The position numbers were made by a program, and so were the translations under genes. The notes beneath the pieces were generated by a model. That model saw nothing but the letters and a program-made list of their open reading frames with translations. It ran no database searches and had not been told where the DNA came from. This document shows positions 3,989 to 61,117 of a stretch of 64,000 bases of DNA, piece after piece. This DNA is from an uncultured virus (IMG/VR IMGVR_UViG_2061766007_000905) (lineage: Duplodnaviria > Heunggongvirae > Uroviricota > Caudoviricetes). Location of the stretch: IMG/VR virus record IMGVR_UViG_2061766007_000905; one strand, 5' to 3'. Every line of letters starts with the position of its first letter. Position 1 is the stretch's first letter.

Positions 3989-4017
3989 TCAAAATTTAAG
4001 ACTAATATAGTCTTTAG

Positions 4018-4332
4018 CTGTCCTTCCTGGACTCGAACCAGGGACCAAGCGATTCATACTACTATAACTTTCGTTACCAAGCATCCTCATGGGTGTTAAG
4101 CCCCCCACCGCACAAATTGGACACTCGTTTTGTAGTCCGGGCTTTGTCTTTACCATATTCTTTCGAACTTAGGTACTTCGTGTAAAGTCTCTACACACGG
4201 ATTATTTCTAATCCTTGCTCGGCGTTGCCATTTTACAGGTTTCACCGACTTAGCGAAGTTTGCATCTATACGTTTCCATACAGAGAATCTATTTTAAACA
4301 GTCGCTCGCTCTACCAACTGAGCTAAAGGACA
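4018..4332 (-). tRNA. tRNA-Asn(GTT) interrupted by an intron
   Basis: exons 4332-4297 and 4054-4018 join to AGCGA CT GTT AA TCGCT; TGTCCTT/AAGGACA acceptor. Confidence 0.9.
4055..4296 (-). mobile_element. Group I self-splicing intron (242 nt) after anticodon position 36
   Basis: 5' exon ends in U, intron ends in G; core-like segments GTCGGTGAAACC, GGCAACGCCGAGCAAG, GTAGAGACT, AAGACAAAGCCCG. Confidence 0.8.
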
Positions 4333-4344
4333 AAAAGGAGAATT

Positions 4345-4378
4345 AAAAAATCCTGTTGAGCTTGTCTCATACAGGATT
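4345..4378 (-). terminator. Attenuator terminator upstream of Asn/Met/Pro/Thr tRNA cluster
   Basis: AATCCTGT(A)TGAG acaag CTCA ACAGGATT TTTT. Confidence 0.8.
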
Positions 4379-4404
4379 CAAATGAAATCATGTAATGAAA
4401 CAAA

Positions 4405-4467
4405 CTAATCGAAAGTTACCTTTGGATTATTGACTGGTGTCATGTTTGTTGTTATTACTAATTGCAT
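4405..4467 (-). CDS. Leader peptide MQLVITTNMTPVNNPKVTFD
   Basis: RBS GAGGA; same layout as 131-196 leader (GAT TAG ttt gtttcat). Confidence 0.75.
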   Translation of the reverse strand: MQLVITTNMTPVNNPKVTFD

Positions 4468-4757
4468 TTTTATCCTCGTTTTATATTATATATAACGATA
4501 ATTTTTTAATTTTCGTTTTTTCGTTGATTTAAATATAGTAATTTATTTTTATTTTGTAAACCCTATTTTTAAAGTGATCTTGAAGGAATACCGATTCGTC
4601 ACCTTCATATAGACCCAGACTCTGGAAGGAATATCCAGACTCAACCCGTTACCACCGTGTCTATTTCATTTTATTGATCGTCTAGCAGACACTTTCTTTC
4701 AATCAACGTTATATAATATAGAATTTTTATTGTGTTTTGTAAACCCTAAAAATTTTT

Positions 4758-7508: not shown

Positions 7509-7629
7509 TTAATATTCTCCTTATATTTTATATATTTATAAAAATCATTTATATCAAATAAAAAATTTATTTTAGGGGTTTACAAAAGGAAAAAACTTTA
7601 CTATATTTAACAACGTTAAAACACAAGAG

Positions 7630-7749
7630 AACAGCAAAAGCGGTTCCTATCATTAATAGAGTAGCTTAATAGGTAGAGCAACCACTAGTTAATGTGGGAG
7701 GTTATTGGTTCGACTCCAATTTCTATTGCCATTATTACTGCTCGCTGTT
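7630..7749 (+). ncRNA. GTTCCTAT-helix ncRNA enclosing tRNA mimic (8-nt anticodon loop, encoded CCA)
   Basis: AACAGC AAA AGCGGT TCCTAT [AATAGAG..TTCTATT GCCA] TT ACTGCT C GCTGTT. Confidence 0.75.
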
Positions 7750-7803
7750 TATTTTGCGAAAAACAGGAAAATTAAAACATATATAATATAAAGGTTAAGA
7801 AAA

Positions 7804-7851
7804 ATGACTAAGTTTGTAGTTGACACTCATGATTGCAAGACTCGCCGCGAC
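7804..7851 (+). CDS. Leader peptide MTKFVVDTHDCKTRRD (variant copy, truncated by gap)
   Basis: identical to 23866 leader. Confidence 0.65.
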
Positions 7852-7884
7852 NNNNNNNNNNGCTTCTACCTTTAATAAATCTCA

Positions 7885-23628: not shown

Positions 23629-23701
23629 AAAATTTTTCCATTTAGGGGTTTACAAAAGGAAAAAGTTTTACTATATTTAACAACGTTAAAATACAAGAGA
23701 A

Positions 23702-23812
23702 TAGCAATAGCAGTTCCTATGAATCAGTGGAATAGCTTAACTGGATAAAGCGTTTACCGTAAGGTAAAAGATTATCGGTTCGAGTCCGGTTCCCATTTCT
23801 TACTGCCCGCTA
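23702..23812 (+). ncRNA. GTTCCTAT-helix ncRNA enclosing tRNA mimic with GNRA-capped anticodon arm
   Basis: TAGC AAT AGCAGT TCCTAT..TTTACC GTAA GGTAAA..ATCGG TTCGAGT CCGGT..TT ACTGCC C GCTA. Confidence 0.75.
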
Positions 23813-23865
23813 CTTTTGCGAAAACAGGAAAAAAATTTTTATATATAATAGAAAGGAAAAACGAA

Positions 23866-23939
23866 ATGACTAAGTTTGTAGTTGACACTCATGATTGCAA
23901 GACTCGCCGCGACNNNNNNNNNNATCATCTAGTTTTTAA
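23866..23939 (+). CDS. Leader peptide MTKFVVDTHDCKTRRD.. (gap inside; end uncertain)
   Basis: AAAGGA RBS; followed by terminator and tRNA-Asp. Confidence 0.7.
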
Positions 23940-23957
23940 CTGTAAAGTTTTAAAAAT

Positions 23958-23988
23958 GATTCCTGTGCAACTCACAGGAATCTTTTTT
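23958..23988 (+). terminator. Attenuator terminator 5 nt before tRNA-Asp
   Basis: GATTCCTGTG caact CACAGGAATC TTTTTT. Confidence 0.85.
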
Positions 23989-23993
23989 AATTT

Positions 23994-24122: not shown

Positions 24123-24746
24123 TGGATTACAAAGCTATATANNNNNNNNNNNNNNNNNNNNNNNNNNNNNNNTAAAATGTTTGATAAAGGAACTATTGAA
24201 AGAAATAAAATGTTGTGTGCTTTATGGAGAATGAATCATAATGGTTCTAAATCGCAAAAATGCCATTATATAAATTCAAGAGCATATGAAGCATTACGTG
24301 TTGAATTTGCAAAAACCATAAGTGAAATAACAAGTAAGAATCAACAAGGTAATAAAAATTCACAGTTTGGAACTAAATGGTATACAAATCGTAATACTGG
24401 AGAATCTAAAAAATTTAAAGAAAAACCTATAGAAAATTTTTGGATTGAAGGCCGAAATCTTTTTCATGGTGAATCAAATAAAATTGTTTATGGTGTAAAA
24501 AAGGATAAAAAACATAAAACAACATTTACAATTACAAGATATAATGAATCTTTGAAATTATCTAGGGAATTATGGGACAAATATCATTCAGGAAATTATT
24601 ATAAACTTGAAGATTTTGCAAATGAATTACATGTTCTAAAAAATGCAATTTATATGCGATTTAAAAAATATATACCAATTTTTAAATCTAATACAAAAAG
24701 AAGACATTTTAGTTCTAATAAAGATTTAATTGGTAAATATGAATAA
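24123..24746 (+). CDS. HNH homing endonuclease (gapped), paralog of 20707
   Basis: same start MDYKAI, KMLCALWRM, KNSQFGTKWYTN. Confidence 0.75.
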   Translation, partial: WITKLYXXXXXXXXXXXKMFDKGTIERNKMLCALWRMNHNGSKSQKCHYINSRAYEALRVEFAKTISEITSKNQQGNKNSQFGTKWYTNRNTGESKKFKEKPIENFWIEGRNLFHGESNKIVYGVKKDKKHKTTFTITRYNESLKLSRELWDKYHSGNYYKLEDFANELHVLKNAIYMRFKKYIPIFKSNTKRRHFSSNKDLIGKYE

Positions 24747-24832: not shown

Positions 24833-24912
24833 GCACCTGTAGCCGAGCCAGACTACGAATCTGGTACACGTAACTGGAGCTGCAAATGGGAGTTCGATTC
24901 TCTTCAGGTGTA
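24833..24912 (+). tRNA. Rearranged tRNA-Arg(ACG)-like RNA
   Basis: GCACCTG TAGCCGAG CCAGA CT ACG AA TCTGG TACACG TAACTGGA GCTG CAAAT T-arm CAGGTGT A. Confidence 0.65.
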
Positions 24913-24979
24913 CTAAAAATATGCGGTGGGAGTTTTACTAATTTCTCGTGTCCGACACCGGGAAGATAANNNNNNNNNN

Positions 24980-25063
24980 TCGACATAGACACAGGGTCAT
25001 TTAGTATTAACTATATAAAGAGTTTATAAAAATGATTCCTGTGTAAAAACAGGAATCTTTTTT
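24980..25063 (+). promoter_or_regulatory. Variant Asp attenuator (leader 3' end, antiterminator, terminator)
   Basis: GAC ATA GAC ACA GGG TCA; ACACAGGGTCAT can pair ATGATTCCTGTGT; GATTCCTGT/ACAGGAATC T6. Confidence 0.75.
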
Positions 25064-25288: not shown

Positions 25289-25368
25289 ACACCAGTAGCC
25301 GAGCAAGACTACGAATCTTGTAATCGTAATTGGAGCTGAAAATGCAGGTTCGATCCCTGTCTGGTGTA
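25289..25368 (+). tRNA. Rearranged tRNA-Arg(ACG)-like RNA, second copy
   Basis: ACACCAG TAGCCGAG CAAGA CT ACG AA TCTTG TAATCG TAATTGGA GCTG AAAAT T-arm CTGGTGT A. Confidence 0.65.
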
Positions 25369-25389: not shown

Positions 25390-25462
25390 GCCTCAGTGGC
25401 GCAATTGGTAGCGCAGCTGACTCTTAATCAGTGGGTTGAAGGTTCGAGTCCTTCCTGGGGTA
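25390..25462 (+). tRNA. tRNA-Lys(CTT)
   Basis: GCTGA CT CTT AA TCAGT. Confidence 0.9.
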
Positions 25463-25470
25463 CGAAAATT

Positions 25471-25542
25471 GGGAGTATATGTCAATGGCTAGACGAGCAG
25501 ACTCTTAATCTGTGGATCCGGGTTCGAATCCCGGTACTCCCA
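25471..25542 (+). tRNA. tRNA-Lys(CTT)
   Basis: GCAGA CT CTT AA TCTGT. Confidence 0.9.
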
Positions 25543-25625
25543 TAATAACTAGCCTTCTGTTTTTGACAAGCGCAGATGGGTTTACGAAGGCCGGTAGATG
25601 TAACCGTTGGCGCAACATCATTTAT

Positions 25626-25698
25626 GCGGTAGTAGCACAACTGGTAGTGCGATTCCTTGCCATGGAATAGGTTGTGGGTTCAAGTCCCATCTACCGCT
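25626..25698 (+). tRNA. tRNA-Gly(GCC)
   Basis: ATTCC TT GCC AT GGAAT. Confidence 0.9.
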
Positions 25699-25707
25699 CT
25701 AAAATAT

Positions 25708-25778
25708 GCGTCTATGTTGTAGTGGTAGCAAACGACCTTGCCATGGTTGAAGCTCCGGTTCGAACCCGGATAGACGCT
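25708..25778 (+). tRNA. tRNA-Gly(GCC)
   Basis: CGACC TT GCC AT GGTTG. Confidence 0.9.
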
Positions 25779-25786
25779 CTAAATTA

Positions 25787-25860
25787 TCCCAGATGTAGTG
25801 TAACGGTTGCACGACAGCGTGTGAGGCTGTTAGATTGTGTTCGACTCACAACTTGTGGAC
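25787..25860 (+). tRNA. tRNA-His(GTG)-like, irregular acceptor stem
   Basis: ACAGC GT GTG AG GCTGT; TCCCAGATG/CTTGTGGA. Confidence 0.7.
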
Positions 25861-25868
25861 TAAATTAT

Positions 25869-25943
25869 GCGGCTATAACATAGTCAGGTTTAATGTGCTA
25901 GACTTCCACTCTGGAAACGTGAGTTCGAATCTCACTAGCCGCT
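25869..25943 (+). tRNA. tRNA-Gly(TCC)
   Basis: CTAGA CT TCC AC TCTGG. Confidence 0.9.
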
Positions 25944-25952
25944 TAAAATTTT

Positions 25953-26024
25953 GGGCTTATATTTCAAATGGCAGAAAACTGGACTCTTAATCCTGGAATT
26001 CCGGATCGTGGCCGGATGAGCCCA
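25953..26024 (+). tRNA. tRNA-Lys(CTT), T loop ATCGTGG
   Basis: GGGCTTA/TGAGCCC, CT CTT AA. Confidence 0.8.
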
Positions 26025-26070
26025 TATTTATATAGTGCAATAAACTCTAGAGTAAAAATATAAATATATT

Positions 26071-27027
26071 ATGGAATTAAAATATATTTGTAGTTTTTGT
26101 AATAAAGAATATGACTCTGCCCATGCGCAAAAAACGCATCAGCGTTTTTGTAAAATGAATCCTAATCATGAAGATAGTGCTTTTATAAAATATAATAAAA
26201 ATAAAGATACTCCATGGAATAAAGGTTTATCAAAAGAAACAGATGAACGTTTAAAATTACGCGGCGAAAAATTGCATAAACGCTATGAAAACGGTGAGTT
26301 AAAACCCTCACAAACAGGTAAATCTGTTTCTGAAGAAACAAAAAAGAAAATCTCAGAAAGTATGAAGAAAGCTCAAAAAGAAGGGCGAGCTTATAATATT
26401 GGACAATCAAGATGGAATAATGAACATAGTATTCCTGAAAAATGGTTAATAAAAGTTTTAAAAAATGATTTTAATCAAATAGAAAATATAGATTATAAAA
26501 CTGAAATGTCTTTTTATAGATATGCCCTTGATTTTGCATGGCCAGAAAAGAAGCTATGTATTGAAATAGATGGTAAACAACATTTGTATGATGAAAAACA
26601 AATAGCGCGTGATAAAGAAAAAGATAGGCTTTTAAAAGAAGATGGGTGGAAAGAGCTACGTTTAAAATGGGGTTATATAGTTAAAAATACACAAGAAGCA
26701 TTAAAAATTATTATTAATTTCTTAAATGAATGTGGTGATACTACAATACCAATATATAAGTCACAATCAGAAATTTGGGAAGAAAAACGAAAAGAAAATG
26801 AGTTAAATGGCGTTTTAAAAGATAAGTCGGGTAAATTTAATAAAAAGAAATTATCAGAAAGCCAATGGTTAAAACGTAAAGAAATAATTTTGAATTCTGA
26901 TATTGATTTAACAAAGTTTGGTTGGAAATCTGAAGTTGAAAGAAAAACAAAATTAACTAGAAAAGAAATTGTTAGAACTATTGAGCATTTCCCAGACTTG
27001 CAGGAACAGACATATAAAAGGGGTTGA
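26071..27027 (+). CDS. Homing endonuclease: Zn-finger, NUMOD3-like, Vsr/DUF559-like nuclease
   Basis: SEETKKKISES, LDFAWP..IEIDGKQH..RD..KD. Confidence 0.85.
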   Translation: MELKYICSFCNKEYDSAHAQKTHQRFCKMNPNHEDSAFIKYNKNKDTPWNKGLSKETDERLKLRGEKLHKRYENGELKPSQTGKSVSEETKKKISESMKKAQKEGRAYNIGQSRWNNEHSIPEKWLIKVLKNDFNQIENIDYKTEMSFYRYALDFAWPEKKLCIEIDGKQHLYDEKQIARDKEKDRLLKEDGWKELRLKWGYIVKNTQEALKIIINFLNECGDTTIPIYKSQSEIWEEKRKENELNGVLKDKSGKFNKKKLSESQWLKRKEIILNSDIDLTKFGWKSEVERKTKLTRKEIVRTIEHFPDLQEQTYKRG

Positions 27028-35525: not shown

Positions 35526-36317
35526 TTATTCTTCTATGAATTCACCATTAAATTCGTGCTTGAAGAAATCTTCTCCATAGTCACGAATCATCTTTTTCTT
35601 CCATTTGGTATCACGTCCCTTCGTGCAGTTCCAAGGAATTTCGATAGCATTAAACGAATTCAGGTTCATCTTTGCCTTGGCGTAAAGCATACAGAACGGA
35701 TGATTAGTTGTAGTCGGCGTAGAACCGATAATCATCTGAGCTCGCATACGTGAAGCCTGAGTAGGAAATACTGACATCATAAAATCATCGGTTTCTCGAC
35801 CGCCCATGTGTGCGAAATCGTCAATCAGCAAAAGGTCTACTGTTTTACCCCTTACGCTTGACGACGAAGCAGCACATGCGAAAATCTGAGTATTGTTTTC
35901 GAATCTAATACAGCTATTGTTATTGGTTTTAGTTTTTGGACGTAAGAATTCAGGAAGATGCTCGTACATATCTCGAACTCGAAATAGGATTTCAGTCGCC
36001 TGCCCATTTTTCGGTGCCATGATACCGACACATTTTTCTGGATGGAATATTGCGAACCAGAGAGCATATACGGTCAGACCTGTAGTAAAACCAGATTGTC
36101 TTGTGTTTTTGACAATATAGTTTCGTTTGATACCAAAATCATCACTTTCGTAAGAATTTACGAAACCGTTGAGCATATCTTTCTGGAATTTACGTGGTTT
36201 GAATGATTCGTAGCCATTTTCAGATATAATCTGTGTATACTGATAAAACTTGTTTATGTCTTTTGCACATTCGGCGACGATTCTGGCTTCTTCGATAGTT
36301 AACTGTTTTTTAATCAT
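35526..36317 (-). CDS. Terminase large subunit ATPase-domain-only paralog, degenerate active site
   Basis: RQSGFTT (Walker A K lost), LIDDFAH, GSTP; ends at FKHEF; late promoter 36350-36357. Confidence 0.75.
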   Translation of the reverse strand: MIKKQLTIEEARIVAECAKDINKFYQYTQIISENGYESFKPRKFQKDMLNGFVNSYESDDFGIKRNYIVKNTRQSGFTTGLTVYALWFAIFHPEKCVGIMAPKNGQATEILFRVRDMYEHLPEFLRPKTKTNNNSCIRFENNTQIFACAASSSSVRGKTVDLLLIDDFAHMGGRETDDFMMSVFPTQASRMRAQMIIGSTPTTTNHPFCMLYAKAKMNLNSFNAIEIPWNCTKGRDTKWKKKMIRDYGEDFFKHEFNGEFIEE

Positions 36318-37529: not shown

Positions 37530-37966
37530 AATGCGTTGGTGACGCTAATATTTGGTATGCCGTAAACCAGGACAAATATGCAGAAACACTGGATTGGGAA
37601 TACAAATATGTCATCAAGTATAGACTTCCTGATAAATACGACCATAAGAAATTTTATCAAGAAATTAAGAATGTCCAGAAATATTATGGATATGCACAAC
37701 CATGCATACAGATGGTTCAGTTCAATGTTCATGACTGGATGTATTTTACCGATTATGAAATCGAAATACATTTCCGCGAATGGGGTTCTAACCGAAAATA
37801 CCGTAACTGGCCGACAACAATCCAAAATATTGAAGAAAGTATTCAGAGCTATATAAAGGCAATGGATGCTGAAATTACCGGACGTACGCTTTATGAAACG
37901 CCGTTAATGTATAATGATGTTTCTTACACTCTGGATTTGCCGCTCCAGAAAAAAATTCCTCAATAG
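37511..37966 (+). CDS. Hypothetical protein
   Basis: ORF in operon. Confidence 0.6.
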   Translation: MRNDDVKCVGDANIWYAVNQDKYAETLDWEYKYVIKYRLPDKYDHKKFYQEIKNVQKYYGYAQPCIQMVQFNVHDWMYFTDYEIEIHFREWGSNRKYRNWPTTIQNIEESIQSYIKAMDAEITGRTLYETPLMYNDVSYTLDLPLQKKIPQ

Positions 37967-38056
37967 GGGTTTACAAAAGAAAAATTATTTGCTATATTTA
38001 CAACGTAAAAACAAAAACACCAAAAAATTTTTTATATATAATAGAAAGGTTAAAAA

Positions 38057-38143
38057 ATGAAATTGCTTAGTTTGACACTCCTTCTACTCAGTAGCCTGCT
38101 CCTTAGCTGGTTATTGCGTCGTAGTCTAGTGGGAACTAAGTAG
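38057..38143 (+). CDS. Leu/Ser/Trp leader peptide MKLLSLTLLLLSSLLLSWLLRRSLVGTK
   Basis: AAAGGT RBS; 13 Leu using all six codons; Ser only AGT/AGC; GTGGGAACT antiterminator. Confidence 0.85.
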   Translation: MKLLSLTLLLLSSLLLSWLLRRSLVGTK

Positions 38144-38171
38144 TTCGATTGTTTAATCGTACGAGAGTTTA

Positions 38172-38205
38172 TAAGGTTCCCACAAGTTGGGAGCCTTAAT
38201 TTTTT
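38172..38205 (+). terminator. Attenuator terminator 4 nt before tRNA-Trp
   Basis: TAAGGTTCCCA caagt TGGGAGCCTTA A TTTTTT. Confidence 0.85.
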
Positions 38206-38209
38206 ATAT

Positions 38210-38283
38210 ATCTCGGTGGTGTAACGGTTTAAGCATGGCTGGCTCCAACCCAGCAGATTAGGGTTCGAATCCTTACCGGGGTG
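38210..38283 (+). tRNA. tRNA-Trp(CCA)
   Basis: GCTGG CT CCA AC CCAGC. Confidence 0.9.
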
Positions 38284-38289
38284 CTAAAA

Positions 38290-38373
38290 CGGCTTGTGGT
38301 GGAATGCAGACACAACTGACTTAAGATCAGTCGTTGGGGAGCCAGCGTGAGGGTTCAAGTCCCTCCAGGCCGA
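38290..38373 (+). tRNA. tRNA-Leu(TAA)
   Basis: ACTGA CT TAA GA TCAGT, long V arm. Confidence 0.9.
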
Positions 38374-38378
38374 TATAA

Positions 38379-38460
38379 CGGTATGTGATGGAATGTATAC
38401 ATGCGGGCTTGAGAGGTCCGTGCCCGAAAGGGATTGGGAGTGCGAGTCTCCCCGTACCGA
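38379..38460 (+). tRNA. tRNA-Leu(GAG)
   Basis: CGGGC TT GAG AG GTCCG. Confidence 0.9.
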
Positions 38461-38468
38461 TAAAATAA

Positions 38469-38525
38469 CGTCAGGTGGAGTAATTTTGGTAGCCTCGCGA
38501 GAATGAGAGTCTCGTGGTAGAAATA
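38469..38525 (+). tRNA. tRNA-Leu(GAG)-like, truncated by gap
   Basis: CGAGA AT GAG AG TCTCG. Confidence 0.6.
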
Positions 38526-38535
38526 NNNNNNNNNN

Positions 38536-38618
38536 CCTTAGGTGGTGGAATGGTATACACGGAAGTTTCAAAAACTTCTGCCCGAAAGGGCATGTGGGTT
38601 CGAGTCCCACCCTAAGGA
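38536..38618 (+). tRNA. tRNA-Leu(CAA)
   Basis: GAAGT TT CAA AA ACTTC. Confidence 0.9.
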
Positions 38619-38622
38619 TTAA

Positions 38623-38705
38623 CCCTGTGTGGCGGAATCGCAGACGCGTCGGACTTAGGATCCGATGATAGAAATATCGTCCGAGTTCAAGTCTCGGCAT
38701 AGGGA
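38623..38705 (+). tRNA. tRNA-Leu(TAG)
   Basis: TCGGA CT TAG GA TCCGA. Confidence 0.9.
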
Positions 38706-38718
38706 TAATAATTTTTAT

Positions 38719-38807
38719 CCGCTGGTGGTGGAATAGTTTATGGTAGACACAGAAGATTCAGACGCTTCCGCCTTAATGGCTTGTGGGTTCGACTCCCACC
38801 CAGCAGA
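38719..38807 (+). tRNA. tRNA-Leu(CAG), mismatched 31-39 pair
   Basis: GAAGA TT CAG AC GCTTC. Confidence 0.75.
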
Positions 38808-38825
38808 CTAAATATAGAGTATTAA

Positions 38826-38914
38826 CGAAGGTTGGCAGAATGGTAATTGCAGAAGTTTGCTAAACTTCCGAGGCTGTCAAAGGTCTCACACAGGTTCGAA
38901 CCCTGTACCTTCGG
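38826..38914 (+). tRNA. tRNA-Ser(GCT)
   Basis: GAAGT TT GCT AA ACTTC, long V arm, G73. Confidence 0.9.
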
Positions 38915-42454: not shown

Positions 42455-43363
42455 ATGGCCAGATTTATTCTTATTACAGGAATGATGGGTTCGGGCAAGT
42501 CTGCTGTTTCTGAACTTTTGCGTAAGAAACATTATATCGTTATCGACAGCGATAGCGAGGTTAAGAAACTTTACGAAGATCCTGAAATCTATCAGTTCAT
42601 TGTTTCTCGTCTCGGCAAGGATTATCTTGACGAATACAATAAGATTGACCTGAAGAAAATGCGTATGGTCTTTGCTAGTCCTACGTTGTTTTCCGAAGAA
42701 CTTATGAATCGTTTGCTTGTCAAGTTTACAAAAAATGTCGACGACAAGTATTTGAACAGCAAGGAAGTTATCTTCATCGAAGCTGCACTTACAACGGATG
42801 TTCAGAAGGTAAGGGCAAGACTCAATATCTTCGATATGGTTATCGTTCATGCTTCTGCTGATATTCGTCATAACCGTCTTATCAAGAGAACGGGCTATGC
42901 GGATATGTACATGCAGAATCTTGAAGCCCGTCAGTCGTTTGAAAATTTGAATTCTACCACTTCAGGAATCAATGTTCCGACGCACAGAGTTTATCATTTG
43001 GAAAATAACGGAACTTTGGAAGAGCTGAATACTTCAGTTATTACCGCTCTCCAGAATCTCGATATTACCCACAATGAAAAGCTTGCAACGTATATTCGTT
43101 ATCTGAAGGAATCACCGACCTATTGTCATGACAATGCTTGGTGTTATAGTTTCTTTAACTGCGGCGGTTGTAATAATTGTCCGTTCCCGTGTAAGAATAT
43201 CGACAGGGATTACAAGAAATTAAACGAAAAGTTCATTGCCGAACAGAAGAAGGCTAATTCTCCTGAAAAGAAATGGTATGAATATATTGACGCTTGGGCT
43301 GATGAATATAATCAGGCCCAAAAAGAAACCAAAGAATTTTACATTACGAGAAGTGACCGATGA
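42455..43363 (+). CDS. coaE: Dephospho-CoA kinase-like protein with Cys-rich C-terminus
   Basis: ITGMMGSGKSAV, IDSD..V..LY, IDLKKMR..VF, EAAL, R..RL..R. Confidence 0.75.
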   Translation: MARFILITGMMGSGKSAVSELLRKKHYIVIDSDSEVKKLYEDPEIYQFIVSRLGKDYLDEYNKIDLKKMRMVFASPTLFSEELMNRLLVKFTKNVDDKYLNSKEVIFIEAALTTDVQKVRARLNIFDMVIVHASADIRHNRLIKRTGYADMYMQNLEARQSFENLNSTTSGINVPTHRVYHLENNGTLEELNTSVITALQNLDITHNEKLATYIRYLKESPTYCHDNAWCYSFFNCGGCNNCPFPCKNIDRDYKKLNEKFIAEQKKANSPEKKWYEYIDAWADEYNQAQKETKEFYITRSDR

Positions 43364-49831: not shown

Positions 49832-49908
49832 GCTGTATTAGTTCAGTTGGTTTTTAGAACGACTCCTTGCCATGGAGTAGGTCACCAGTTCGAGCCTGGT
49901 ATACAGCT
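49832..49908 (+). tRNA. tRNA-Gly(GCC)
   Basis: ACTCC TT GCC AT GGAGT. Confidence 0.9.
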
Positions 49909-49917
49909 CTAAATAAT

Positions 49918-49990
49918 GTGTCCATGGTGTAGTGGTTTAACATCAGTGACCGCCAGTCATTGGTCGCCGGTTCGAATCCGGCTGGACGTT
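49918..49990 (+). tRNA. tRNA-Gly(GCC) with C33
   Basis: AGTGA CC GCC AG TCATT. Confidence 0.8.
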
Positions 49991-50000
49991 CTAAAAATTT

Positions 50001-50073
50001 GCCTCAGTGGCGCAATTGGTAGCGCAGCTGACTCTTAATCAGTGGGTTGAAGGTTCGAGTCCTTCCTGGGGTA
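50001..50073 (+). tRNA. tRNA-Lys(CTT)
   Basis: identical to 25390 copy. Confidence 0.9.
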
Positions 50074-50083
50074 CGAAAATTAT

Positions 50084-50174
50084 GGGCACGTAGGCTAAAG
50101 AGTGAATAACCGGATTACCAGGAGGCTGTACGCAAGGAAGCCACCGCATACGGGTTCGAATCCCGTCGAGTCCA
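50084..50174 (+). ncRNA. tRNA-like RNA with Ala-type acceptor and no canonical D/anticodon arms
   Basis: GGGCACG/CGAGTCC A (G3.U70), ACGGG TTCGAAT CCCGT. Confidence 0.55.
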
Positions 50175-50186
50175 CTAAAAATTTTT

Positions 50187-50259
50187 GCCTCTATATGATA
50201 ATGGCCTAGTCGAGCTGACTCTTAATCAGCGGGTCCTGGTTCGAGTCCAGGTAGTGGCA
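50187..50259 (+). tRNA. tRNA-Lys(CTT)
   Basis: GCTGA CT CTT AA TCAGC. Confidence 0.85.
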
Positions 50260-50267
50260 CTAAATAT

Positions 50268-50341
50268 GCGTCATTGGTGTAATGGCTTAACATGGCTGGC
50301 TTCCAACCAGCGGACTGTCGGTTCGAGTCCGACATGACGCT
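50268..50341 (+). tRNA. tRNA-Gly(TCC)
   Basis: GCTGG CT TCC AA CCAGC. Confidence 0.9.
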
Positions 50342-50350
50342 CTAAAATCA

Positions 50351-50423
50351 TCCCATACGTAGTGTAACGGCAGCACAACAAACTGTGACTTTGTTAGATT
50401 GTGTTCGACTCACAACTTGTGGA
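50351..50423 (+). tRNA. tRNA-His(GTG)-like, irregular acceptor stem
   Basis: ACAAA CT GTG AC TTTGT; TCCCATACG/CTTGTGGA. Confidence 0.7.
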
Positions 50424-58946: not shown

Positions 58947-59198
58947 ATGACTGGCTACGATCCGAAAGACAGTAAAGAAAGACGCGTATTTAAGGCGTTT
59001 TGCTTTTGCAAATCAATGCAAAAGAAAGGACAGGATAAAAACGTAGCGCTACAAGTCGCCAGTAAGTATTATCATGTTCCTGAAGAATCAGTCCGCGAAT
59101 ATGTAGAAGGTGAAGATAACGACGATATTTATTTTATGCTAAATGGCGCCATACCGATTGCAGCAAGTGATATATTTGATCCGGGAGATTTTTGTTAG
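58947..59198 (+). CDS. Hypothetical protein
   Basis: ORF in operon. Confidence 0.55.
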   Translation: MTGYDPKDSKERRVFKAFCFCKSMQKKGQDKNVALQVASKYYHVPEESVREYVEGEDNDDIYFMLNGAIPIAASDIFDPGDFC

Positions 59199-59199
59199 C

Positions 59200-59919
59200 A
59201 TGAAAGTTGGATTAATTGGAAGTAATATCTGGTATAGCAAGTCCAAAGAAATATTTGAATCACAAGGAATAGAATATAAGATTTATGATGTATCTTGTGT
59301 AGAACAAGGACTTGAACTGGCTATAGCCAATAAGTTGGACGGTTTCAACGTAACGAAACCGTTTAAAAAAGATATTGTCAAGTATATGGATTCATTGATG
59401 CCTGAAGCACAACGTATTGGGACTGTGAACTGTGTTAAAATCATAAATGATTGTTTTATCGGCGAAAATTTCGATGGCGAAGCATTCCGAATTTCTTTGG
59501 ATCATTATGTCAGCAATCATGATGATTGGGAATTCGATTATCCGCATCGTATGGCTATTCTTGGGAATGGAGGAGTAGTTCCGGCTATTCTTACCGCACT
59601 TCATGACGCCACCGATTTAACTACTTCTAGTCATGAAATGACAGTATTTGCCCGTAATCCGAAGTGTATAGATGAAAAAAGTATTTCGGAATTCGATGCC
59701 AAGAAATTCGATCTTATCGTCAACACCATTCCTTTCGAAACCGGAATAGATATCAATTTCAATAATAAGAGTAAGTTCATCTATTATGATTTGAATTATG
59801 CTGAACCAAATTTACTTGTTAAAAAGGCTGAAAGGAATAAACACTGTTCCTGGTCAATCAACGGGTTGGATATGCTTGAACGCCAGGCAGAAATGTCGCT
59901 TAAGTGGTGGAAGGAATAA
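59200..59919 (+). CDS. aroE: Shikimate dehydrogenase-like protein, second copy
   Basis: near-identical to 28421 ORF. Confidence 0.8.
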   Translation: MKVGLIGSNIWYSKSKEIFESQGIEYKIYDVSCVEQGLELAIANKLDGFNVTKPFKKDIVKYMDSLMPEAQRIGTVNCVKIINDCFIGENFDGEAFRISLDHYVSNHDDWEFDYPHRMAILGNGGVVPAILTALHDATDLTTSSHEMTVFARNPKCIDEKSISEFDAKKFDLIVNTIPFETGIDINFNNKSKFIYYDLNYAEPNLLVKKAERNKHCSWSINGLDMLERQAEMSLKWWKE

Positions 59920-60187: not shown

Positions 60188-61117
60188 TTATTCGAATTTT
60201 ATATCGTAAGTCGCATCTTCTACTTCTTCAATAGTTAGCTTTTTATTGAATAACTGTTTTAATTTTTCCATTAAACCTTTAGCTTCTTCCCTAGATAATG
60301 GGCTTGTATTTATGTTTAATGTAATCGTATTAGCTTCTTCTATTGGAGTAGAAAGAATAAATGCTGCATCATATTCTTGTGTAAAGAACTTTATACCATA
60401 ATCTCTAATAGTCTTATTTTTCCATGCTTCATCACGGCCAGGCATACAGTCATACCCGATATGCGTCGCGATAAATGATGATTTGCCAGCCTTGGCATTA
60501 GAATAGATTGTATAGAATTCATTATCTCCGTGCGGCGTGGACAGTAATATTACTTGCGAATTAACGCTGGCACTGACTGTTGGGAATACGGACTTCATAA
60601 ATTGGTCGAGCGATTTTTCTTTACAGTATGCAAATTCGTCAAAAACAATTAAGTCTATATGCTTGCCTAGAACTGCACTGCTTGAAAACGGCGCATTAAA
60701 GATATATGAACCGTTTTCGAATTCGATGCGTCCGTGTTTGCTTTTGGTAATTTTGACTTTAAGAAAATCCGGAAGATGTTCATATAATTCCATTACTTTT
60801 TCAAGTATAGATCTAGACTGGAGTTCTGTATTTGCAAGAATCGCGATAGTTCTTTGCTCGTTGAATAACGCGAACCACAAAAGATATATTATGGCAATAG
60901 TCGTTTTTCCACATTGCCTAGGAGCTACCACAACATGGTTATGCTTCATTTCTTTTCTATTAATCCAGCTCTTGGCAAACTTACGTAAAAGCTTTGCTTG
61001 AAACTGGTAAGGCCGAAATTCAGTAAAACCATCAGCGGTAAGTATTTCGATATATTGTATAAATTTGTTGATGTTTTTAGCACACGCTTTACGTATGCTT
61101 GATTGTTTGATATTCAT
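60188..61117 (-). CDS. Terminase large subunit ATPase-domain-only paralog
   Basis: YQFQ, PRQCGKTT, FDEFAY, LSTPHG, FTQEY; no nuclease domain. Confidence 0.8.
   Translation of the reverse strand: MNIKQSSIRKACAKNINKFIQYIEILTADGFTEFRPYQFQAKLLRKFAKSWINRKEMKHNHVVVAPRQCGKTTIAIIYLLWFALFNEQRTIAILANTELQSRSILEKVMELYEHLPDFLKVKITKSKHGRIEFENGSYIFNAPFSSSAVLGKHIDLIVFDEFAYCKEKSLDQFMKSVFPTVSASVNSQVILLSTPHGDNEFYTIYSNAKAGKSSFIATHIGYDCMPGRDEAWKNKTIRDYGIKFFTQEYDAAFILSTPIEEANTITLNINTSPLSREEAKGLMEKLKQLFNKKLTIEEVEDATYDIKFE

Follow-up and report, generated by a model that had tools for sequence, protein, structure and literature searches.

Multivalent attenuators are known in enterobacteria, where the leader of the ilvGMEDA operon contains Leu, Val and Ile codons and that of the thr operon Thr and Ile codons. 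The attenuator of the pheST operon, encoding phenylalanyl-tRNA synthetase, displays a Phe-rich leader, pheM. All the described leader-peptide attenuators known to us control amino-acid biosynthesis or synthetase genes. The element described here is located at positions 38,057 to 38,914 of a DNA stretch of 64,000 nucleotides (nt) from an uncultured virus (IMG/VR record IMGVR_UViG_2061766007_000905), hereafter referred to as the window. It consists of a short open reading frame (ORF) rich in Leu, Ser and Trp codons, followed by a terminator hairpin and an array of transfer RNA (tRNA) genes. On the basis of the sequence and of folding models, it probably represents a ribosome-mediated leader-peptide transcription attenuator gating a phage tRNA operon; the direction proposed for the switch, from ribosome stalling to readthrough, is put forward with somewhat less confidence.

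The window is phage DNA, in which 40 tRNA genes were called by ARAGORN. The sequences most closely related to it are viral contigs, among them a 411-kb record (G002, 98% complete) and a 424-kb record (G003, complete with terminal repeats). Module comparisons were made on related phage records of about 410-424 kb and on the window, and the 13 modules examined originate from the window, G002 and G003. Codon backgrounds were derived from the 26 window ORFs of at least 200 codons (6,611 codons). The Leu/Ser/Trp module and its array are composed of the following features:

37970-37998, plus strand: promoter TTTACA-17 nt-TATATT with GGGG upstream, 10 of 12 consensus positions matched
38033-38049, plus strand: conserved box TATATATAATAGAAAGG, whose 3' end GAAAGG is the Shine-Dalgarno sequence, 7 nt 5' of the ATG
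38057-38143, plus strand: leader ORF MKLLSLTLLLLSSLLLSWLLRRSLVGTK, 28 codons and a stop
38129-38137, plus strand: region 2, the predicted antiterminator strand GTGGGAACT, leader codons 25-27
38172-38198, plus strand: intrinsic terminator hairpin, 11 pairs, -15.8 kcal/mol
38175-38183, plus strand: terminator 5' arm segment GGTTCCCAC, within the hairpin
38200-38205, plus strand: terminator T-run, from a consensus scan
38210-38284, plus strand: tRNA Trp-CCA (ARAGORN, Rfam)
38290-38373, plus strand: tRNA Leu-TAA (ARAGORN, Rfam)
38379-38460, plus strand: tRNA Leu-GAG (ARAGORN, Rfam)
from 38469, plus strand: partial Leu-GAG-like copy, interrupted by a masked stretch and too short for a complete tRNA
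38535-38619, plus strand: tRNA Leu-CAA (ARAGORN, Rfam)
38623-38705, plus strand: tRNA Leu-TAG (ARAGORN, Rfam)
38726-38806, plus strand: weak, doubtful Leu-CAG with mismatches in the acceptor stem, absent from the Rfam calls and obtained with ARAGORN only after lowering the threshold
38826-38914, plus strand: tRNA Ser-GCT (ARAGORN, Rfam)

ARAGORN searches with introns allowed or with very low thresholds gave unreliable calls. The codon counts and coordinates of the leader given in the original prediction, which was made from the sequence alone, are all correct; the downstream tRNAs it listed were retrieved by both programs, apart from Leu-CAG, which did not hold at the regular threshold. The hairpin starts 28 nt after the leader stop and lies 11 nt upstream of the first tRNA. 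One relative carries an almost identical sequence from the promoter through the terminator, whereas its flanking protein shares only 83% identity and its tRNA-Trp is different.

The promoter belongs to a clade-wide motif, GGTTTACAA-N15-19-TATATT (37966-37998 in the window), found in 8-27 copies per record in five records of related phages and matched 5 times in the window; the reversed control pattern yielded 0 copies in the same related records. Since the motif also drives ordinary protein genes, it is regarded as the general promoter of the clade. The box at 38033-38049 gave 7 matches versus 0.75 expected, one of them an identical copy at 23840-23856, upstream of an Asp-type leader, and it is also found upstream of leaders in the relatives.

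The leader encodes 13 Leu (TTG, CTT and CTC three times each, CTA twice, CTG and TTA once), 5 Ser, all specified by AGY codons (AGT three times, AGC twice), and a single Trp (TGG); CGT is used twice. The Leu, Ser-AGY and Trp codons, taken as regulatory, occupy codons 3-20 and 23-24. The six tRNAs called by ARAGORN decode 19 of the 27 sense codons, as compared to 10.0% of the background codons (binomial probability 9e-14). According to the usage of the 26 long window ORFs, the probability of obtaining at least 13 Leu in 27 codons is 6e-9 and that of using AGY for all five Ser is 0.004. The use of all six Leu codons is unremarkable when taken alone (P=0.15), and the rare CTC and CTA are over-used. 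Synonymous codons, which the original prediction had proposed to compare in homologues, are conserved: the frame, 5-6 kinds of Leu codons, AGY-only Ser and one Trp are kept in 12 distinct leader variants, 8 of type A and 4 of a diverged type A' (MKKVCLTSLLLLSLLSWCFVVH...). The A' variants carry two Cys codons and Cys-GCA is present in all three A' arrays seen in full; the eight A variants display neither Cys codons nor Cys-GCA.

From this anatomy we infer the following mechanism. Transcription would start at the promoter and the 28-codon leader would be translated while the RNA polymerase advances. When the Leu, Ser (AGY) and Trp codons are read fast, the ribosome would reach the last codons or the stop and cover GUGGGAACU (38129-38137), allowing the hairpin to form and transcription to end at the T-run, upstream of the tRNAs. 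When a tRNA is scarce, uncharged or damaged, the ribosome would stall in codons 3-20, leaving GUGGGAACU free to pair with the 5' arm of the terminator; with this arm sequestered, the terminator would not form and transcription would read through into Trp-CCA, the Leu isoacceptors and Ser-GCT. Such a loop would limit itself, the leader codons being read by the very tRNAs that readthrough supplies. Without a ribosome, the 5' half of the leader would sequester region 2 and termination would be the default. The same design, fitted with other leaders, is found ahead of other tRNA arrays in a clade of phages of about 400 kb, and the phage would then gauge its decoding capacity one array at a time and in part one codon at a time.

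A terminator hairpin followed by a T-run is present in all 13 modules, with energies of -12.6 to -18.6 kcal/mol and a start 25-35 nt past the leader stop. The two segments of the Leu/Ser/Trp module whose pairing had been predicted are located as described, and the duplex formed by GUGGGAACU (38129-38137) and GGUUCCCAC (38175-38183) amounts to -16.4 kcal/mol, a value equalled by none of 1000 shuffles of the leader end. For the duplex between leader 3' end and 5' arm, at most 4 of 1000 shuffles are as good in 10 of the 13 modules. Each module type possesses its own complementary pair, such as GUGCAUAGGA:UCCUGUGCAC in type G and GGUGACAC:GUGUCACU in type H. The antiterminator pairing is also conserved in the homologues of the Leu/Ser/Trp leader, including a compensated change from A to A', where the leader GTG becomes GTA, the 5' arm CAC becomes TAC and the 3' arm TGG becomes TAG, both pairings being kept. 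These A and A' pairings were compared by eye and through duplex energies, region 2 not being column-aligned in the MAFFT alignment of the 12 sequences.

The ribosome-free fold of 38000-38212 displays a long leader hairpin, joining codons 2-6 with region 2, in addition to the terminator (-58.7 kcal/mol, z=-4.7). Folding with and without a ribosome was then represented by a nascent-transcript model, in which the RNA ends before the 3' arm of the terminator and the ribosome masks 30 nt. In this model, the 5' arm of the window module is paired at 0.81 for stalls at codons 2-13, at 0.27 with a ribosome at the stop and at 0.34 without ribosome. As modelled, the window element would follow the classical three-state logic, where no translation or complete translation leads to termination and a stall leads to readthrough.

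The window contains two further modules, and additional types were found in the relatives:

4349-4564, minus strand: module with promoter at 4546-4564, leader at 4405-4467 (MQLVITTNMTPVNNPKVTFD) and terminator at 4349-4378
23645-23988, plus strand: Asp-type module with promoter from 23645, tRNA-like element at 23726-23799, box at 23840-23856 and leader start at 23866
23958-23982, plus strand: Asp-type terminator hairpin, followed by a T-run and then by Asp-GTC at 23993
type B, relatives: leader MTFTMNTNTVNPNNPEVLQD; array Asn, Pro, Thr, Met, Val
type C, relatives: leader MTKFVVDTHDCKTRRDGRGFGKHDKDRHKHRVI; array Asp, Lys-CTT, Gly, His
type D, relatives: leader MLRFVKQVKQIRKQQVAVCFAMGSE; array Gln-CTG, Lys-TTT, Arg-TCT, Gln-TTG
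type F, relatives: leader MMSIRKQIRIRKQGSPWF; array Arg-TCT, Gln-TTG, Lys-TTT, Met-CAT, Ile-TAT
type G, relatives: leader MTMNVFEHEFFAAERAAAEFAAAAFEAF...; array Glu, Ala, Phe
type H, relatives: leader MNLQSYTSSCISICGQQSSIYCMYSIKTGG; array Tyr, Cys, Met, Ile-GAT, Ser-GGA/TGA/CGA, Gln-CTG

In the window, the array of the minus-strand module is composed of an intron-bearing tRNA followed by Met-CAT, Pro-TGG and Thr-TGT, and the Asp-type array of four Asp-GTC, Lys-CTT, Gly and His.

Leaders are matched to the arrays that they precede. Of the codons of a leader, its own array can decode a fraction of 0.32-0.72, versus backgrounds of 0.07-0.20, and other arrays 0.00-0.21, the exception being two related Asn/Pro/Thr arrays with 0.47-0.50. 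Among 120 permutations of leaders and arrays for five G002 modules, and among 5040 for seven G003 modules, the true pairing ranks first. At the amino-acid level, tabulated for 11 representative modules and 20 amino acids, those with at least two leader codons coincide with those served by the array (two-by-two table 143, 9; 31, 37; odds ratio 19). Where an array covers only part of a codon family, synonymous choice follows it, 49 of 55 codons being covered versus 27.3 expected (z=6.2). All five Ser codons upstream of Ser-GCT are AGY and all seven upstream of Ser-GGA/TGA/CGA are TCN; likewise, Lys is AAG (5/5) upstream of Lys-CTT and AAA (3/3) upstream of Lys-TTT. Three ATA, three AGA, two AAA and two CAA precede Ile-TAT, Arg-TCT, Lys-TTT and Gln-TTG, respectively. 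A Tyr codon in the leader of the G003 B2 module is accompanied by Tyr-GTA in its array, and the G002 counterpart has neither. Matched codons are concentrated in the middle of the 13 leaders (181 of 256 positions), with 7 of 26 among the first two codons and 8 of 65 among the last five, these last five being the strand that pairs with the terminator.

The association of this architecture with tRNA genes was surveyed in the complete G003 record, the architecture being defined as an ORF of 15-45 codons within 330 nt of the promoter, with a terminator located 15-45 nt past the stop codon. Out of 32 promoter-pattern sites, 8 are followed by such a short ORF and terminator, and all 8 precede tRNA arrays; they correspond to 6 distinct modules, two of which have two promoters each. 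None of the other 24 sites displays the short ORF and terminator. When the Asp array is taken as continuing across the ends of the terminally repeated record, 49 of the 50 G003 tRNA genes lie behind seven modules, namely these six and the internal B2, which lacks a promoter of its own. B2 (L071 10991-11056, G003) is situated inside an operon, behind a first Asn/Pro/Thr array. From its sequence, the B2 of G003 is a putative tandem, internal attenuator.

A number of observations weigh against the attenuator or limit its reach. For eight codons of the Leu/Ser/Trp leader (AAA, ACA, two CGT, GTG, GGA, ACT and AAG), the array provides no tRNA. The original prediction had rightly pointed out that the two CGT codons have no matching tRNA in the array, and this pair is kept in the 8 type A variants with an array devoid of Arg tRNA. 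The modules being paralogues and the records relatives, the tests are not based on independent samples and the P values are descriptive. Two window arrays, from 20116 and from 49832, have no leader, and the single G003 tRNA outside the modules, Leu-TAA, has a promoter and no leader. Contigs of relatives from four RNA libraries (metatranscriptome runs) cover 37940-38207 and parts of the array, and the 755-nt contig X3 spans leader, terminator and one tRNA; ends, strand and transcription not being shown by such contigs, they were given no weight.

Other such points concern folding. When the full-length RNA is folded to equilibrium, the terminator prevails for most placements of the ribosome (0.92-0.96), and drops in the window only for stalls at codons 4-8 (0.06-0.45); the switch would therefore have to be kinetic. 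Classical attenuators likewise decide kinetically. The leader-end duplex fails in the minus-strand module of the window, for which 868 of 1000 shuffles do as well, and in the G003 homologue of that module (887 of 1000); in both, a spacer segment located just past the stop pairs with the arm instead. The duplex is weak in type D (G2_D, 35 of 1000 shuffles). Type F (Ile/Arg/Lys/Gln) discriminates poorly (0.70 versus 0.56). In A', region 2 is situated six codons before the stop and is left largely free (0.64) by a ribosome at the stop. For several types, the antiterminator is modelled in ribosome-free RNA as well (0.74-0.91), and the default state therefore differs between modules.

Some of these observations would suit an opposite or different logic, in which efficient translation of the leader promotes readthrough, for instance through a ribosome at the stop disturbing the terminator, and tRNAs are made only when translation works. 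Ribosome-free formation of the antiterminator in several types and the exposed region 2 of A' are in favor of such a scheme, as is the fact that the direction of the switch is itself deduced. The stop is nevertheless located 25-35 nt upstream of the hairpin in 13/13 modules, out of reach of a ribosome with the usual footprint. Moreover, the complementarity between leader end and 5' arm and the clustering of matched codons upstream of the pairing strand would have no role in it, and a positive feedback on tRNA supply explains codon-level matching no better, so that this logic is considered quite improbable. An arrangement devoid of any switch is also unlikely, though it should be weighed: the hairpin would serve in processing or stabilising the RNA at the head of the tRNA precursor, and the ORF would encode a small expressed peptide with codons that simply mirror the local tRNA supply. 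It would agree with the dominance of the hairpin at equilibrium and with the tRNA-like elements, possible processing signals, that precede some leaders. A GC-rich hairpin directly followed by a T-run has, however, the form of an intrinsic terminator, which would block the array unless overridden. Codon adaptation of a peptide of 18-37 codons to the downstream tRNAs would be pointless unless decoding is sensed, and the last five codons are constrained by pairing instead of codon match.

The leader product could finally be a small hydrophobic peptide of membrane or signal type, its match to the tRNAs being a coincidence of Leu richness. The stretch MKLLSLTLLLLSSLLLSWLLRR does resemble a transmembrane or signal segment, and the occurrence of all six Leu codons is by itself not improbable. 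Paralogues of the same architecture have nevertheless hydrophilic leaders, MTKFVVDTHDCKTRRDGRGFGKHDKDRHKHRVI and MMSIRKQIRIRKQGSPWF being examples, and each leader fits the array behind it; Ser is AGY-only in 12/12 A and A' variants, and the true pairing comes first of 5040 permutations. This explanation, which the original prediction had named as the competing one, is thereby undercut and appears very improbable, even though the likeness of the Leu-rich peptide to a membrane helix would leave room for a second role. The ribosome-mediated attenuator remains the favored interpretation, and the original prediction is supported, as far as computation reaches, by the leader-array codon match, the conserved pairing and the modelled ribosome-dependent switch.

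Several additional observations were made on the paralogous modules. The first tRNA behind the minus-strand leader (4017-4332, minus strand) has its anticodon loop split by an insert of about 240 nt, with the intron at about 4124-4309; joined by eye, it reads as a putative Asn-GTT. The insert gave a sub-threshold Rfam match to group I introns (26.8 bits versus 50, E=2e-4 in a 1.5-kb search). The Asp-type leader, which starts with MTKFVVDTHDCKTRRD, is partly masked and apparently shortened in the window, a full-length version being present in relatives. Its copy at 23866-23932 is a shortened 5' part, 10 bases of which are masked and whose frame as it stands does not reach the TAG, and a 3' leader fragment with a second terminator is found at about 24960-25060, upstream of another tRNA-Asp. 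Judging from the sequence, this leader looks rearranged in the window phage. An ORF (24177-24746) is located between copies of the Asp tRNA. A truncated Asp-type duplicate at 7575-7860 (plus strand) comprises the promoter, the tRNA-like element, the box and the first 16 leader codons, and beyond a masked stretch it passes into the end of a gene on the minus strand.

The tRNA-like genes with abnormal anticodon loops that stand behind the promoter and before Asp-type leaders (23726-23799 and 7655-7731, plus strand; 14880-14953 in L069) are reported by ARAGORN as '???' with 'anticodons' of 2 or 4 bases (e.g. gtta). They reach 42-46 bits with the Rfam tRNA model, are conserved in G002 and could be processing signals or unusual decoders. 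Two other tRNA-like genes, at 24833-24912 and 25289-25368, were detected by Rfam only; with a CTACGAA loop they would be Arg-ACG, serving the CGC and CGA codons of the Asp-type leader, but the anticodon is not confidently assignable and they were not counted. The Gly/Lys/His array at 49832-50423 (plus strand) largely repeats part of the Asp-type array (25390-26025, plus strand) and directly follows a protein gene, with neither leader nor terminator. ORFs resembling DUF559 endonucleases (1311-2042 and 26071-27027, plus strand) lie between or adjoin tRNA genes, and are probably homing endonucleases that shuffle the tRNA arrays. In the window, two separate ORFs have similarity to the N-terminal domain of the large terminase of T4 type:

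35526-36317, minus strand: first terminase-like ORF (E=1e-8)
60188-61117, minus strand: second terminase-like ORF (E=1e-19)

Their presence suggests a terminase gene that is either duplicated or split. ORFs with dephospho-CoA kinase-like and shikimate dehydrogenase N-terminal domains (42455-43363 and 59143-59919, plus strand) are possible auxiliary metabolic genes.

Related elements were also sought in sequence collections. No T-box match was obtained, either in the window at Rfam thresholds, where the hits were tRNAs only, or in 37950-38215 at E<=10. Among the Rfam amino-acid leader families (Leu, His, Thr, Trp and Phe), the best candidate was Phe_leader, with 16.7 bits versus a threshold of 55 (E=2.1), and was rejected. 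In the GenBank phage collection, similarity to Listeria, Stenotrophomonas and Streptomyces phages was limited to the tRNA level and no related module was found. An exact pattern containing the Shine-Dalgarno box of the window had 0 matches in viral contigs. The short box ATATATAATATAAAGG is unspecific, with at least 122 stretches retrieved, chiefly from unrelated AT-rich phages, and is of use only once filtered. In the full-text literature combining leader peptides or attenuation with phage tRNA, tRNA arrays or operons, or tRNA-targeting defences, subscription journals being largely outside this search, no description of such a system was found. In the searched passages of two articles on phage tRNA (PMC10264068, PMC13015707), the terms 'leader', 'attenuat', 'terminator' and 'promoter' were not found. 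Phage tRNA genes are currently proposed to serve in codon compensation, to replace host tRNAs that have been degraded, or to evade defences that cleave tRNAs (PMC10264068, PMC11555353, PMC11464382).

As a tentative extension, the modules may together constitute a distributed, isoacceptor-resolved sensor of host decoding capacity in this clade of phages, where each array would be switched on by stalls at its own codons. Loss of tRNAs caused by phage host shut-off or by tRNA-cleaving defences could then be detected and repaired through expression of the needed set only, in the manner of an inducible counter-defence. Why phage genomes include tRNA genes has long been asked, and a leader reporting slow codons would state when each tRNA set is needed. 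If this holds, the question becomes testable, the limitation of one isoacceptor being expected to turn one array on, and tandem modules within one operon, such as B1 then B2 in G003, would permit stepwise release. Leader-peptide attenuation would thereby be extended from amino-acid supply to tRNA supply. It would also be a naturally occurring case in which a sensor tells synonymous codons apart, and would supply compact, modular parts for reporting the decoding capacity of cells.

When compared to the known systems, the phage element combines the structural hallmarks of an attenuator: a short ORF with a ribosome-binding site near a promoter, an enrichment in cognate codons and an intrinsic terminator upstream of the first tRNA. 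It shares with the ilvGMEDA and thr attenuators a promoter-proximal short ORF with several kinds of regulatory codons, an intrinsic terminator upstream of the first gene and a mutually exclusive antiterminator, here predicted, which involves the 3' part of the leader and is chosen by the position of the ribosome. It differs from them in that tRNA genes are controlled instead of biosynthetic enzymes, the product directly relieving the stall, in that the matching reaches synonymous codons and isoacceptors (AGY versus TCN, AAG versus AAA, ATA, AGA), and in the presence of seven differently addressed copies in one phage genome; there is no sequence similarity. The pheST operon is likewise a case of leader-peptide attenuation acting on a gene of the translation apparatus and sensing the cognate charged tRNA, but there a synthetase is controlled, with a single amino-acid specificity and in a cellular operon. 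In T-box riboswitches, an antiterminator likewise makes readthrough of an intrinsic terminator depend on the status of a tRNA; these riboswitches bind the uncharged tRNA directly, by means of the specifier codon and the T-box sequence and without translation, whereas the phage element possesses an ORF and a Shine-Dalgarno sequence. The point of novelty is the nature of the controlled genes, which are tRNA genes, and this difference does not constitute a mismatch of mechanism.

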